This document shows, piece after piece, positions 26,526 through 39,579 of a DNA stretch of 64,000 bases. Both the position numbers and the translations under genes were made by a program. The DNA is taken from assembly GCF_988242995.1 (NCBI RefSeq), contig NZ_OZ547043.1. One strand, given 5' to 3'. Below the pieces are notes generated by a model, which saw only the letters and a list, made by a program, of their open reading frames with translations, did not search any database and was not told the origin of the DNA. The first letter of the stretch is position 1. The number at the start of each line of letters is the position of its first letter.

Positions 26526-26625
26526 TTAACAACTTTGCAGATTAATTAACCAATTGAAATGACTTATGAAATTTAGTGTTGACAGACAAGGTACCGCTAA
26601 GTAATATGCGCCCCGTTCACACGAT

Positions 26626-26701
26626 TCCTCTGTAGTTCAGTCGGTAGAACGGCGGACTGTTAATCCGTATGTCACTGGTTCGAGTCCAGTCAGAGGAGCC
26701 A
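26626..26701 (+). tRNA. asnT: tRNA-Asn (GTT)
   Basis: TCCTCTGTAGTTCAGTCGGTAGAACGGCGGACTGTTAATCCGTATGTCACTGGTTCGAGTCCAGTCAGAGGAGCCA. Confidence 0.95.
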
Positions 26702-26863
26702 GATTCAAGTTTTCATGCTTATCTGTACGTTTATATTTGTTTACGATTCAGTAAGTTAGCGTGAAAATCCTTGCCGGTGCGTATCTGGTTTTATCTCCGC
26801 ATCGGGATAATTTGGTGGTCAGATCTGGGGTCAGTTTGGTTCGATTCTGGAGTGACCCCCAAA

Positions 26864-27743
26864 ATGTCTTTAAACGATTCTAAAATCCGCAAGTTAAAAT
26901 CTTCTTCCCGTCCGGTAAAACTCTCCGACTCTCACGGTCTGTATCTGCTCGTCAATCCGGGCGGTTCGCGCATCTGGTATCTCAAATATCGTTTCAACGG
27001 AAAAGAATCCAGAGTCAGTCTTGGCGCATACCCGCTGGTCTCACTGGCAGAAGCCAGGCAACAGCGCGACGGTATCCGCAAGTTACTGGCGCAGAATATC
27101 AACCCGGCGCAGCAGCGCATGGCAGAGAAAGCCGCCTGCTCCCCTGAAAAGTGCTTTAAAGCGGTGGCGCTGGCCTGGCACAAAACCAACAAAAAATGGT
27201 CGGCTGATTATGCCGCCCGTATTCTCGCCAGTATGGAAAACCATATCTTCCCGGCGGTTGGTCATTTGCCCGTTGCCAAACTTAAAACGCAGGATTTCAC
27301 TGCCCTGCTGAGGGTTATTGAGGATAAGGGCTTTCTGGAAGTCGCGTCCCGCACGCGGCAGCAACTCAGCAACATCATGCGCTATGCCGTATAGCAGGGG
27401 CTTACCGAAAGCAATCCGGCGCAGCATCTGGATGGCGTTGTCTCCTCCCCCGTAAAGAATCACTACCCCGCGTTACCGCTGGAGCGGTTGTCCGAACTGC
27501 TTGGCCGCATCGGTGACTATCAGCAGGGCCGGGAGTTAACCCGGCTGGCGGAGGTGCTGACACTGCACCTGTTCATCCGTTCCAGCGAACTGCGTTTCGC
27601 CCGCTGGAGCGAGATCGATTTCAGGCACAAAATCTGGACCATCCCCGCCACCCGCGAGGCCATCGACAAAGTTCGGTTTTCGGGGCGTGGCGCAAAAATG
27701 CGTACTCCGCATATCGTACCGCTCTCCCGCCAGGCGATTGCCC
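26864..27743 (+). pseudogene. P4-type tyrosine integrase remnant: in-frame TAG at 27395-27397 and 3' truncation by IS1
   Basis: N-terminal MSLNDSKIRKLK...GLYLLVNPGGSRIWYLKYRFNGKE... typical of tRNA-associated P4-like integrases; the same frame continues after the TAG (QGLTESNPAQHLDG...) and stops at the IS1 end. Confidence 0.8.
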
Positions 27744-27758
27744 GGTAATGACTCCAAC

Positions 27759-28262
27759 TTATTGATAGTGTTTTATGTTCAGATAATGCCCGATGACTTT
27801 GTCATGCAGCTCCACCGATTTTGAGAACGACAGCGACTTCCGTCCCAGCCGTGCCAGGTGCTGCCTCAGATTCAGGTTATGCCGCTCAATTCGCTGCGTA
27901 TATCGCTTGCTGATTACGTGCAGCTTTCCCTTCAGGCGGGATTCATACAGCGGCCAGCCATCCGTCATCCATATCACCACGTCAAAGGGTGACAGCAGGC
28001 TCATAAGACGCCCCAGCGTCGCCATAGTACGTTCACCGAATACGTGCGCAACAACCGTCTTCCGGAGACTGTCATACGCGTAAAACAGCCAGCGCTGGCG
28101 CGATTTAGCCCCGACATAGCCCCACTGTTCGTCCATTTCCGCGCAGACGATGACGTCACTGCCCGGCTGTATGCGCGAGGTTACCGACTGCGGCCTGAGT
28201 TTTTTAAGTGACGTAAAATCGTGTTGAGGCCAACGCCCATAATGCGGGCTGTTGCCCGGCAT
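27759..28262 (-). CDS. insB: IS1 InsB (expressed as InsAB' by -1 frameshift)
   Basis: 167-aa ORF overlapping insA in the -1 frame. Confidence 0.93.
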
Positions 28263-28456
28263 CCAACGCCATTCATGGCCATATCAATGATTTTCTGGTG
28301 CGTACCGGGTTGAGAAGCGGTGTAAGTGAACTGCAGTTGCCATGTTTTACGGCAGTGAGAGCAGAGATAGCGCTGATGTCCGGCGGTGCTTTTGCCGTTA
28401 CGCACCACCCCGTCAGTAGCTGAACAGGAGGGACAGCTGATAGAAACAGAAGCCAC
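28181..28456 (-). CDS. insA: IS1 InsA
   Basis: 91-aa [94 protein letters not shown]. Confidence 0.93.
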
Positions 28457-28512
28457 TGGAGCACCTCAAAAACACCATCATACACTAAATCAGTAAGTTG
28501 GCAGCATCACCG

Positions 28513-37094: not shown

Positions 37095-37170
37095 TCCTCT
37101 GTAGTTCAGTCGGTAGAACGGCGGACTGTTAATCCGTATGTCACTGGTTCGAGTCCAGTCAGAGGAGCCA
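37095..37170 (+). tRNA. asnU: tRNA-Asn (GTT)
   Basis: Identical to asnT. Confidence 0.95.
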
Positions 37171-37179
37171 AATTTCTGA

Positions 37180-37207
37180 AAAGCCCGCTTTTATAGCGGG
37201 CTTTTTG
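37180..37207. terminator. Hairpin terminator between asnU and cbl
   Basis: AAAGCCCGCT-TTTAT-AGCGGGCTTT followed by TTG. Confidence 0.75.
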
Positions 37208-38158
37208 CTATATCTGATAATCAATTTCCTCTTCACTGTTTTCCATCACCTGCCGCTTGATATCCTCAACTGAAAGTCCTGCATTACAAAGTTCCAGAAA
37301 GCGCCAGACATAGTTACGCTGAAGTTGCCCTCGCTTGAGTCCCAACCAGACAGTATTAGCATCGAAAAGATGCCGCGTATCCAGGCGGATTAAATTCTTT
37401 TCCTCTTGTTCACCGCTGGATTGTTCGGCAACTAATCCGATCCCCAGCCCAAGAGCAACATAGGTTTTAATGACATCAGAATCCTGCGCACTTAATACAA
37501 TATCTGCCAGCAAACCTTTGCGGGCAAATGCGTCATCAATACGTGAGCGCCCCGTAATCCCCTGTCGGTAAGTGATTAACGGCCACTTCGCTATTGATTC
37601 CAGCGTCAATGGTGTAATTTGCGTCAAGGGATGATCGAGTGGAACAAGCAAACTATGGTGCCAACGAAACCACGGGAAGGCGACGAGCTGCGGGTCATTA
37701 CTCAAACGCTCGCTGGCGATACCAATATCAGCTTCGCCATTTTGCAACAACGTCGCAATTTCCTGTGGCGTCCCCTGGATTAGCTCGAGCCGAACCTCCG
37801 GGAAAAGTTCGCGAAAAGCTTTAATGACCCCTGGCAAGCTATAACGCGCCTGAGTATGCGTCGTTGCAATAGTGAGAACGCCAGACGTATCGTTGGTAAA
37901 CAGGTCTGCAAGCCGACGAACATTACTGGCTTCATTCAGAATACGTTCTGCAATGACCAGTAATGCTTTGCCCGGTTCAGTCATGCCCAGCAGTCGCTTA
38001 CCTCGTCGAACAAATATTTCGATGCCAAGTTCATCCTCCAGTTCCCGAATATGACGGCTGACGCCTGACTGTGAGGTAAAAAGCATATTCGCAACCTCTG
38101 TCAGGTTGTAATCCTGACGTGCAGCTTCGCGGATTATCTTTAGTTGTTGGAAATTCAC
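37208..38158 (-). CDS. cbl: LysR-family regulator Cbl (sulfonate utilisation)
   Basis: 316-aa LysR-type ORF MNFQQLKIIREAARQDYNLTEVANMLFTSQSGVSRHIRELE... Confidence 0.9.
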   Translation of the reverse strand: MNFQQLKIIREAARQDYNLTEVANMLFTSQSGVSRHIRELEDELGIEIFVRRGKRLLGMTEPGKALLVIAERILNEASNVRRLADLFTNDTSGVLTIATTHTQARYSLPGVIKAFRELFPEVRLELIQGTPQEIATLLQNGEADIGIASERLSNDPQLVAFPWFRWHHSLLVPLDHPLTQITPLTLESIAKWPLITYRQGITGRSRIDDAFARKGLLADIVLSAQDSDVIKTYVALGLGIGLVAEQSSGEQEEKNLIRLDTRHLFDANTVWLGLKRGQLQRNYVWRFLELCNAGLSVEDIKRQVMENSEEEIDYQI

Positions 38159-38259
38159 GGTAAACTCCGGGCAGTTCAGATATCCCGTTATTGTTAAAGT
38201 CTAACGCCCGGCATAACAAATAATAAAAACCCGCATCTTATTCCATCCCGATATAACGC

Positions 38260-39177
38260 TTAGCTCACCAATTGCCACTGCCTTTTTTCCATCACTGGAG
38301 AACTAATCACTGACATTAACAACTCTTTCACTGCCTGTGCCTGTGGCGATAAGTTCGCTCTGGCGGGTAAATTTAATGACAAAGAGAGACTCATTGAAGG
38401 CGTGGTAATGCGTGACATCCACCCATTTACTGCGCCACATAACGAACGCGCGGCCGATTCGGGTAATACTGCAACGCCCATGCCGCTGGCAATCGCTGCG
38501 GTAAGCGTGGCAATAGACTCAATTTCACCAATAACTTTTGCCGTGAGTCGCCGTAGGGAAAAAGCCTCATCAACACGAAGTCTAACAGCGCTGTAATCAC
38601 TGGGGAGAAAGAGGTTCATTTTCGCAATAGCATTCACATCAACGCTTTGCCCCGGGCAATCTTGAGTTCCTACCAGAAAAAGATCTTCTTTCAGCAAAGC
38701 CTGACTGGATACACCAGCCACAGGGGAATGCTCATAAATCACCGCCATATCGAGTTGGTGATTTATCAATTTTTCGTTAAGCACTGCACCACTATTTTCA
38801 TGAAGATAGATAACGATCTCCGGAAATTCAGCGCGAACCGCCTGTAATAAGGGCATGGTGATGGATGACGCAGCGGTTCCTGGTGCAAAGCCAATCGAGA
38901 CTTGCCCCGATAATGCCTGACCAACGTTATGCACCGCCAGTTGGGCCTGTTCACACTGACGTAAAATGGCCCGCGCATGGGTATAGAGAATTTTTCCGGC
39001 GTCTGTTGGCGTAACGCCCCGCTTTGTACGGATCAAAAGTTGTTGATTTAACTCACCTTCCAGTGTGGCAACCTGCTGGCTGAGCGCTGGTTGTGCGATA
39101 TGCAATACTTCAGCAGCCTGGGTCAGGCTACCAATATCTACAATTTTTACGAAGTATTTCAGGCGTCTGAAGTTCAT
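38260..39177 (-). CDS. nac: Nitrogen assimilation control protein Nac (LysR family)
   Basis: Start trimmed to MNFRRLKYFVKIVDIGSLTQAAEVLHIAQPALSQQ... (305 aa). Confidence 0.9.
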   Translation of the reverse strand: MNFRRLKYFVKIVDIGSLTQAAEVLHIAQPALSQQVATLEGELNQQLLIRTKRGVTPTDAGKILYTHARAILRQCEQAQLAVHNVGQALSGQVSIGFAPGTAASSITMPLLQAVRAEFPEIVIYLHENSGAVLNEKLINHQLDMAVIYEHSPVAGVSSQALLKEDLFLVGTQDCPGQSVDVNAIAKMNLFLPSDYSAVRLRVDEAFSLRRLTAKVIGEIESIATLTAAIASGMGVAVLPESAARSLCGAVNGWMSRITTPSMSLSLSLNLPARANLSPQAQAVKELLMSVISSPVMEKRQWQLVS

Positions 39178-39503
39178 GTTGCCTCCGGTTTTTAAGAATC
39201 GGCCCAAGTGCCGCCATTACTTACAACCAGAAAGCAAGATGCTTGCCAGTTCTATTTTGGCGTTGATGCGCAAGCTAACCAACTGTCAAATAAAAGATTA
39301 TGATAGATTCGTCATTGGCCCTTTTTATCAGCAGTCGCATTCACCTGCCCTATAAAAGGAGGGTATGCACCACGATGGTTCATTACACAATAAGATTGAA
39401 AGCTCACCACTTTGTTGAAATTGGCAGCAAACAAACAAAAAAATACATTTCACCCTTTGACATCACCATGCACTGCCATTAATATGCGCCCCGTTCACAC
39501 GAT

Positions 39504-39579
39504 TCCTCTGTAGTTCAGTCGGTAGAACGGCGGACTGTTAATCCGTATGTCACTGGTTCGAGTCCAGTCAGAGGAGCCA
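39504..39579 (+). tRNA. asnV: tRNA-Asn (GTT)
   Basis: Identical to asnT; shares the upstream block TAATATGCGCCCCGTTCACACGAT with asnT. Confidence 0.95.

Follow-up and report, generated by a model that had tools for sequence, protein, structure and literature searches.

The tRNA-Asn genes asnT, asnW, asnU and asnV of Escherichia coli are an established landing site for genomic islands and an established breakpoint of rearrangement. In the parts of Auvray et al. (2021, PMC8209727) considered here, the pks island is inserted at asnW, asnU or asnV, the high-pathogenicity island (HPI) is fixed at asnT and has lost its right repeat, the 4,309-bp asnW-asnU-asnV region is inverted in pks-positive B2 strains, and the integrase promoter is replaced by that of the tRNA gene. 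In Klebsiella pneumoniae, the integrative and conjugative element ICEKp uses any of four clustered tRNA-Asn genes as its target, with 17-bp repeats (Lam et al. 2018, PMC6202445). After integration of ICEKp1, the terminator is displaced, the tRNA-asn promoter drives int, and stem-loops in the 5' untranslated region (UTR) attenuate transcription (Liu et al. 2026, PMC13023037). Here, we describe the asn cluster found in a 64,000-nucleotide stretch of contig NZ_OZ547043.1 (assembly GCF_988242995.1), hereafter called the window. An earlier sequence-only reading had proposed that its four tRNA-Asn genes are substrates for inversion or deletion and candidate attachment (att) sites for tRNA-targeting islands.

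tRNA genes were called by ARAGORN and cross-checked with the Rfam tRNA model. Four tRNA-Asn(GTT) genes were detected in the window, each coinciding with an Rfam match of 72.6 bits, and this was the only Asn isoacceptor called by ARAGORN there. All 76 of the 76 positions were invariant in a four-way alignment, and the copies from all loci fetched from other strains were identical too. The description of four identical 76-nt genes in mixed orientation was thus borne out, and the cluster is the known asnT-asnW-asnU-asnV cluster of E. coli. When the flanks are included, the repeats extend over 85 nt between asnW and asnU (100% identity), 104 nt between asnW and asnV (97%), 123 nt between asnT and asnW (91%) and 107 nt between asnT and asnV (99%). 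The window is colinear with K-12 in the order serU-mtfA-asnT...yeeL(GT9)-shiA-amn-yeeN-asnW-yeeO-asnU-cbl-nac-asnV-ldtA-cobTSU, and the gene names given before, including the neighbours yeeN, yeeO, cbl, nac and ldtA, agree with the K-12 annotation. The exceptions to colinearity, an integrase stub, an insertion sequence (IS1) and a yeeJ deletion, all lie beside asnT. The cluster spans 12,983 bp in the window versus 17.8 kb in K-12 because most of yeeJ is deleted. The order and orientation in the window represent the common ancestral state, with no rearrangement.

The observations below are best explained, with high confidence, by a dual role of the asn cluster as a set of island attachment sites and as patches of homology for recombination. 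In this model, the 3' ends of the four genes would be interchangeable attachment sites for islands carrying P4-like integrases, and the asn repeats would act as 85-123-bp homology patches. A crossover between the inverted asnW and asnT, asnU or asnV would invert the intervening DNA, a crossover between the direct copies asnU and asnV would delete or relocate cbl-nac, and short conversion tracts would homogenise the sequence flanking the tRNA genes. Most of the rearrangements would be made by general (RecA-type) homologous recombination and not by an integrase.

Junctions at the asn loci were surveyed in 5,426 complete E. coli genomes, a collection biased towards clinical lineages. Each query comprised 1,076 bp (a 500-nt flank, the tRNA gene and a second 500-nt flank), and a genome was counted when one place covered at least 80% of the query. 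The recombinant-junction queries were synthetic sequences that can arise only if two tRNA genes have recombined. The native yeeN-asnW-yeeO, yeeO-asnU-cbl and nac-asnV-ldtA junctions were found in 4,974, 5,176 and 4,664 genomes, respectively, so that 86-95% of genomes have an unoccupied native junction at these three loci. The empty mtfA-asnT-yeeJ junction was present in 2,665 genomes and the mtfA-asnT-integrase junction in 2,467, the latter corresponding to a P4-like integrase at asnT in approximately 45%. Among the recombinant junctions, the asnW-asnV inversion (yeeN-asn-nac) was found in 265 genomes, the asnW-asnU inversion (yeeO flipped) in 34, and the asnT-asnW inversion in a single genome. 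Thus, each of the three inversions that asnW can form with a direct copy is found in nature. The yeeO-asn-ldtA junction between asnU and asnV was present in 34 genomes, and the asnT-asnV deletion junction in 0 among the matches listed.

Individual genomes showed the arrangements behind these counts. Nissle 1917, with the asnW-asnV inversion, has the order yeeN asn(-) nac(+) cbl(+) asn(-) yeeO(+) asn(+) int clbS. The annotated genome of Santai has yeeO flipped between asnW and asnU, and in ET5 the whole yeeJ-yeeN block is flipped between asnT and asnW. MEI3O-23 carries a clean cbl-nac deletion between asnU and asnV that leaves three asn copies. In every recombinant tRNA gene, the upstream flank of one locus was joined to the downstream flank of another; therefore, the breakpoints lie within the repeat. 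These inversions, the asnU-asnV junctions and the MEI3O-23 deletion support the proposal that the tRNA-Asn repeats are substrates for inversion and deletion, and the comparison of block order and orientation among strains, which had been recommended, revealed clear structural variation.

The possibility that all 34 yeeO-asn-ldtA junctions are simple cbl-nac deletions was also considered. It holds for MEI3O-23 and was rejected for the E50 type, in which four asn copies are present and cbl-nac-asn has been relocated approximately 45 kb away, behind a type VI secretion system (T6SS) island that follows asnT. The left part of this E50 region (NZ_CP121199.1, 2885000-2998368) reads asnT-int-RelE'-IS3-T6SS island-cbl-nac-asn-int-RelE/ParE-RHS-IS3-PAAR-yeeJ, and it continues from yeeJ through yeeN, an 18-kb island and a pseudo-int to asnW-yeeO-asn-ldtA; its two intact integrases are 98% identical. 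A further arrangement was seen in SL112 (locus 5501-5853), where two tRNA-Asn genes lie 201 bp apart with a 150-bp cbl fragment between them and nac is missing. The second of these genes lacks the usual promoter, and a simple tRNA-to-tRNA crossover does not explain this structure.

Several points weigh against the role of the repeats as proposed above. Genome counts are not counts of independent events: a small number of events in B2 lineages, or even one, may underlie the 265 asnW-asnV inversions, and the identity to the query is 98.1% in all 34 genomes with the asnW-asnU inversion, which suggests a single clone. The crossover point is unmappable inside identical sequence, recombination by an integrase at the core in the tRNA 3' end is possible, and nothing is rearranged in the window itself. 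Accordingly, the inversions and relocations might instead have been made site-specifically by island integrases acting between att cores in the tRNA-Asn 3' ends. In Nissle 1917, an intact P4-like integrase and pks lie directly beside the recombinant tRNA gene, and the integrase at asnT in about 45% of genomes could act in trans; moreover, in the parts of PMC8209727 considered, the inverted orientation occurs only in pks-positive B2 strains and the inversion is proposed to accompany pks insertion. However, in Santai no integrase lies beside either recombinant tRNA gene within the 13 kb examined, and none is present at the MEI3O-23 deletion junction. In addition, the mosaic conversion tracts described below extend hundreds of bases past any att core. 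For RecA-dependent recombination, repeats of 85-123 bp suffice for a homologous crossover. The integrase explanation thus appears unlikely, and homologous recombination between the asn repeats is preferred.

The second part of the model, the use of the 3' ends as attachment sites, was examined through the integrases and the repeats that bound the islands. In the loci examined, four P4-like integrase lineages, with mutual amino acid identities of 53-81% in blastp, adjoin asn tRNA genes. The integrase type of the window occurs at asnT, asnV or asnW depending on the strain, the HPI type at asnT, and the E50/MS14386 type at asnT and beside nac-asn; the pks type is also among the asn-adjacent lineages. 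P4-like integrases from no fewer than four lineages directly follow asn tRNA genes, in several strains and at several asn loci; this and the published cases (PMC8209727, PMC6202445) support the earlier view of these genes as att sites for islands. In A23, ET5 and E50, the islands terminate on the far side in a 16-24-nt partial repeat of the tRNA 3' end. At asnW of E50, the far repeat is followed by an older vestige flank (see below), and islands are therefore stacked at this locus. In the 64-kb window, 16-nt and 23-nt probes allowing up to 2-3 mismatches matched only the four tRNA-Asn genes. The partial 3'-end repeats expected at island boundaries were thus present in relatives and absent from the window, where the lack of a right-hand repeat (attR) is expected because of a deletion adjacent to IS1.

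This deletion lies at asnT, where the window retains what is evidently the remnant of an island. The coordinates of this and the other features are given in the table. The P4-like tyrosine integrase has the same orientation as asnT, matches the Arm-DNA-bind_3 and Phage_int_M domains and has no match to a catalytic-domain family; most of its C-terminal catalytic domain is absent because IS1 truncates the integrase after codon 293. Judging from this structure and from its nonsense codon, it is a remnant and not a working gene. In local blastp comparisons, the HPI and pks integrases showed 81% identity to one another and approximately 70% identity to the stub protein. An origin of the stub from HPI was rejected on the basis of this identity to the HPI integrase and of its match to a pseudogene found at asnT or asnV in other strains. 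The window has nothing that corresponds to the ybt genes of CEA601S, and no island cargo genes were found at its asnT, the stub adjoining IS1 and IS1 adjoining the 3' end of yeeJ.

Two related genomes show less reduced states. In A23, asnT is followed by a full-length pseudo-integrase, IS1, a 16-nt tRNA 3'-end repeat, an asnT flank of the K-12 type and a complete yeeJ. HCP17S3_I4 has the same junction of IS1 with the yeeJ remnant as the window and retains the whole pseudo-integrase. It follows that the window underwent two successive deletions, both adjoining IS1: the first took attR, the native asnT flank and approximately 6.3 kb of yeeJ, and the second took a further 478 bp, from the integrase. 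The exact integrase-IS1-yeeJ junction of the window had no full counterpart in the genome collection.

Coordinates of features in the window (copies in other loci are numbered in those loci)
Feature	Position	Strand	Basis or remark
tRNA-Ser(CGA), serU	25545-25634	-	ARAGORN
Predicted asnT promoter and leader	26579-26625 (TTGACA-17-TAATAT, 26579-26607)	+	Sequence motifs
asnT, tRNA-Asn(GTT), 76 nt	26626-26701	+	ARAGORN, Rfam
Integrase 5'-UTR, island-derived, 162 nt	26702-26863	+	Comparison with K-12; replaces the native asnT terminator and flank
P4-like tyrosine integrase pseudogene	26864-27743	+	TAG at codon 177 (27392-27394); cut after codon 293 by IS1
IS1, 768 bp	27744-28511	-	No target-site duplication; lies between the integrase stub and the yeeJ 3' end
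yeeJ 3' remnant (inverse-autotransporter adhesin)	28512-29268	+	Last ~250 codons
asnW native 3' flank, putative decayed left end of a P4-like island	35042-35270	-	Similarity to MS14386/E50 type
asnW, tRNA-Asn(GTT)	35271-35346	-	ARAGORN, Rfam; sole inverted copy
Predicted asnW promoter and leader	35347-35393 (TTGACA-17-TAATAT, 35393-35365)	-	Sequence motifs
Predicted asnU promoter and leader	37051-37094 (TTGACA-16-TAAGAT, 37051-37078)	+	Sequence motifs
asnU, tRNA-Asn(GTT)	37095-37170	+	ARAGORN, Rfam
Predicted asnU terminator, hairpin and T-run AAAAGCCCGCTTTTATAGCGGGCTTTTT	37179-37206	+	Sequence reading; directly after asnU
Predicted asnV promoter and leader	39457-39503 (TTGACA-17-TAATAT, 39457-39485)	+	Sequence motifs; block 39480-39503 is that of asnT
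asnV, tRNA-Asn(GTT)	39504-39579	+	ARAGORN, Rfam
Predicted asnV terminator, bidirectional hairpin	39587-39614	+	Hairpin and T-run; directly after asnV
Integrase copies compared at codon 177	Window 26864-27743; L001 4465-5727; HCP17S3_I4 20365-21627 and 33706-34968; L006 16971-18233
Promoter blocks compared at asnT	Window 26602-26625; K-12 4526-4549; CEA601S 5897-5920
Accessory region left of serU in other strains	CEA601S 67-4561; E50 1-9287

The upstream regions of the four genes were also compared. The 24-nt block TAATATGCGCCCCGTTCACACGAT is present exactly upstream of asnT (26602-26625) and of asnV, with 0 matches in 100 shuffles. The same block occurs upstream of asnW on the minus strand with 3 mismatches (21 of 24 positions; 35347-35370), and in a looser form at asnU. 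Thus, of the earlier claim that asnT and asnV share an upstream block, the exact match stood, and its restriction to these two copies did not. The hexamer TTGACA is invariant at all four loci and lies 16-17 bp upstream of TAATAT or TAAGAT. The block consists of the -10 hexamer, a GC-rich discriminator (GCGCCCC, TCGCCTC or GTGCCTC after the -10 hexamer) and approximately 10 leader bases before the mature 5' end. From these motifs, the shared "leader" can be identified as a core σ70 promoter (-10 and discriminator) with a short 5' leader, and the asn genes as four single-gene transcription units, each with its own near-consensus σ70 promoter. Such a layout is typical of strongly expressed stable-RNA promoters of E. 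coli, and the 5' trimming of the tRNA leader is done by RNase P. The asn promoters are accordingly predicted to be active and growth-rate regulated.

Downstream, asnU and asnV keep their own terminators, and none lies directly after asnT. The UTR that follows asnT (26702-26866) has a predicted fold of three stem-loops (-48.9 kcal/mol, z = -3.6), and a terminator search of it yielded a weak terminator-like hairpin only, at 26773-26789. Transcription from the asnT promoter would thus be expected to read into the integrase stub.

Traces of exchange between the asn loci were found in the sequences beyond the tRNA genes. The TAG at codon 177 of the integrase is common to the copies at asnT in the window, A23 and HCP17S3_I4 and to those at asnV in HCP17S3_I4 and CFSAN061761; in the copy at asnW of E50, this codon is CAG and the stop is a different one. 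The asnT- and asnV-linked integrases show approximately 15 fixed differences in the first 380 nt after the tRNA gene and are then identical over approximately 1.07 kb, including the TAG. Between the 880-nt stub of the window and the asnV copy of HCP17S3_I4, 9 of the 12 coding differences are synonymous (binomial P = 3e-4), and it is therefore unlikely that the divergence arose in an already dead gene. Read most simply, these data suggest, although they do not prove, that conversion or recombination between two diverged integrase alleles later made their 3' parts uniform and thereby spread the nonsense codon. Furthermore, in the asnT copy of A23, the 35 nt next to the tRNA gene have bases of the asnV type, and the exact identity of the promoter blocks of asnT and asnV is strain-specific, K-12 asnT differing by one base and CEA601S asnT by another. 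At the three variable block positions, asnT reads G-C-A in the window, T-C-A in K-12 and G-C-T in CEA601S, which are mixes of asnV- and asnW-type alleles. Both the 35-nt tract and the mixed alleles fit conversion between asn loci. At block position 7, G was present in every island-bearing asnT examined and T in the empty asnT of K-12.

The identity of the genes and of the block could also result from purifying selection only, with no ongoing exchange and with the rearrangements as rare accidents. Since tRNA-Asn(GTT) is the only Asn isoacceptor in the window, strong selection on its sequence would be expected; the -35, the -10 and the discriminator are functional elements, and the native junction is retained at asnW, asnU and asnV, in each case in more than 86% of genomes. 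However, selection does not explain identity within a pseudogene, such as the 1.07 kb with its shared nonsense codon next to 380 nt of fixed differences, and the mixed block alleles at asnT as well as the asnV-type bases of A23 also speak against it. Selection as the sole cause is therefore regarded as quite improbable, and exchange between the asn repeats remains the favoured explanation.

An older trace of island insertion was detected at asnW. Its native 3' flank is 73% identical over 202 nt to the left end of the MS14386/E50 island (E = 4e-28, 110 bits), whereas the best of 200 shuffled controls scored 23.8 bits. A second segment of the flank corresponds to integrase codons ~35-50. The vestige thus comprises the 5'-UTR and the first ~50 codons of an integrase, with deletions, and its closest relatives are the intact elements at asnT in MS14386 and E50. 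The native flanks of asnU, asnV and K-12 asnT showed no similarity to the island left end. This vestige flank adjoins an asn tRNA gene in at least 5,274 of the 5,426 genomes (>97%) and is therefore an old scar. In the window, asnU and asnV are unoccupied, with their native terminators directly 3'. The integrase fossil at asnW raises the possibility that the inverted orientation of this gene arose in an ancient island-associated event. The nonsense-mutated integrase that asnT and asnV share through a tract of ~1 kb points in a similar direction. More broadly, island traffic and gene conversion anchored at the tRNA genes might themselves have produced the present architecture of the cluster, an idea that we advance tentatively and consider somewhat more doubtful than probable. 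If it is true, dead stubs would be copied between asn loci without a working integrase and would lengthen the homology available for further rearrangement.

Comparison with other genomes pointed to recombination on a larger scale. Between ~42 kb and 64 kb, the window and CEA601S are 100% identical, and at 29-41 kb they diverge by 1-2%; this switch therefore indicates a recombination breakpoint near cobT/cobS. The differences from CEA601S at 30-41 kb amounted to ~7-38 substitutions per kb, not counting two bins in which indel offsets raised the value. To the left of yeeJ, CEA601S carries HPI and a different yeeJ remnant, and the window left of 28512 gave no alignment with the CEA601S locus. CFSAN061761 and cq9 match the window over short parts only. 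In view of these alignments, the asn region of the window is a recombinational mosaic.

The sequence-only reading had also held that the cluster may explain why accessory DNA accumulates nearby. After cobU, an accessory block rich in insertion sequences runs from ~43.1 kb to 64 kb, and only 330 of the 5,426 genomes match 80% or more of its length. It starts with a fragment of a cobalamin-biosynthesis gene and IS4, IS66 and IS110 fragments, and it contains pieces of IS4, IS66, IS110 (ISEc45) and ISL3, a PfkB kinase, glutamine amidotransferase genes, a drug/metabolite transporter (DMT) gene, and phosphotriesterase-like, zinc-ribbon and inovirus Gp2-family genes. The same slot holds pocR and pdu genes (the cbi/pdu region) in E50 and CP4-44 in K-12. 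A displaced or degraded asn-targeting island might be considered here, given that the region lies only 3.5 kb from asnV and that relatives carry large islands between asnV and ldtA. However, there is no partial tRNA-Asn 3' end in the 64-kb window and neither a boundary derived from tRNA-Asn nor a P4-like integrase in the accessory block; the block opens with cobalamin-gene and insertion-sequence fragments in a slot that other strains fill differently, and the conserved ldtA-cobTSU separates it from asnV. Such an origin is thus very improbable, and the attribution of the accessory DNA beyond cobU to the asn cluster was not upheld.

Some further observations concern the left part of the window. 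The neighbour of serU is the core gene yodB in the window and accessory DUF6387, H-NS-like and helix-turn-helix genes in CEA601S and E50; the accessory genes adjoining tRNA-Ser(CGA) in E50 include TIR and SIR2. The alignment with HCP17S3_I4 has a gap at window 16367-17305 (HCP17S3_I4 locus 9740-10807), inside a porin gene annotated as ompC, and the low GC content (0.38) of this segment suggests a divergent porin allele. A 6-kb contig filed under a metagenome-assembled genome named 'Bacillota bacterium' (JAEWTL010000060.1) is 99.6% identical to window 23683-26713 (yodB-serU-mtfA-asnT), and it is probably a mis-binned E. coli contig. One scan of genome contigs for the asnW vestige outside E. coli yielded this contig only.

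The asn cluster is the entry point of the yersiniabactin and colibactin islands in E. coli and Klebsiella, and recombination among its genes affects the gain, fixation and rearrangement of virulence islands. To what was known, the survey of 5,426 genomes adds population numbers for every possible tRNA-to-tRNA rearrangement, and the window itself is an unremarkable, unrearranged case whose island traces are all decayed. The other additions are small: the asnW-asnU and asnT-asnW inversions, the counts of asnU-asnV junctions, the vestige at asnW and the shared nonsense codon.

As in ICEKp1 (PMC13023037), asnT of the window has no strong terminator and is separated from an integrase by a 162-nt UTR that is predicted to be strongly structured. 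Unlike in ICEKp1, this integrase is a pseudogene, and the likeness of the UTR to that of ICEKp1 is one of geometry and predicted fold. The ICEKp system shares with the window four close identical tRNA-Asn genes (within 16.4 kb when empty there) as alternative sites, and in ICEKp the left end carries a P4-like integrase and the 17-bp direct repeats stem from the tRNA 3' end. It differs in species and neighbour genes, and ICEKp is complete and mobile, whereas the window holds a stub and an older vestige. With respect to the E. coli region in the parts of PMC8209727 considered, the window differs in that it carries neither HPI nor pks, its asnT stub is approximately 70% identical to their integrases and cut by IS1, and the orientation is non-inverted; no mention of the asnW-asnU and asnT-asnW inversions or of the asnU-asnV junction was found in those parts. 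Nevertheless, the same four genes and neighbours are present in both, with a P4-like integrase, in the window a remnant, 3' of an asn tRNA gene, and, like HPI at asnT there, the asnT island of the window is truncated and has lost its right-hand direct repeat.

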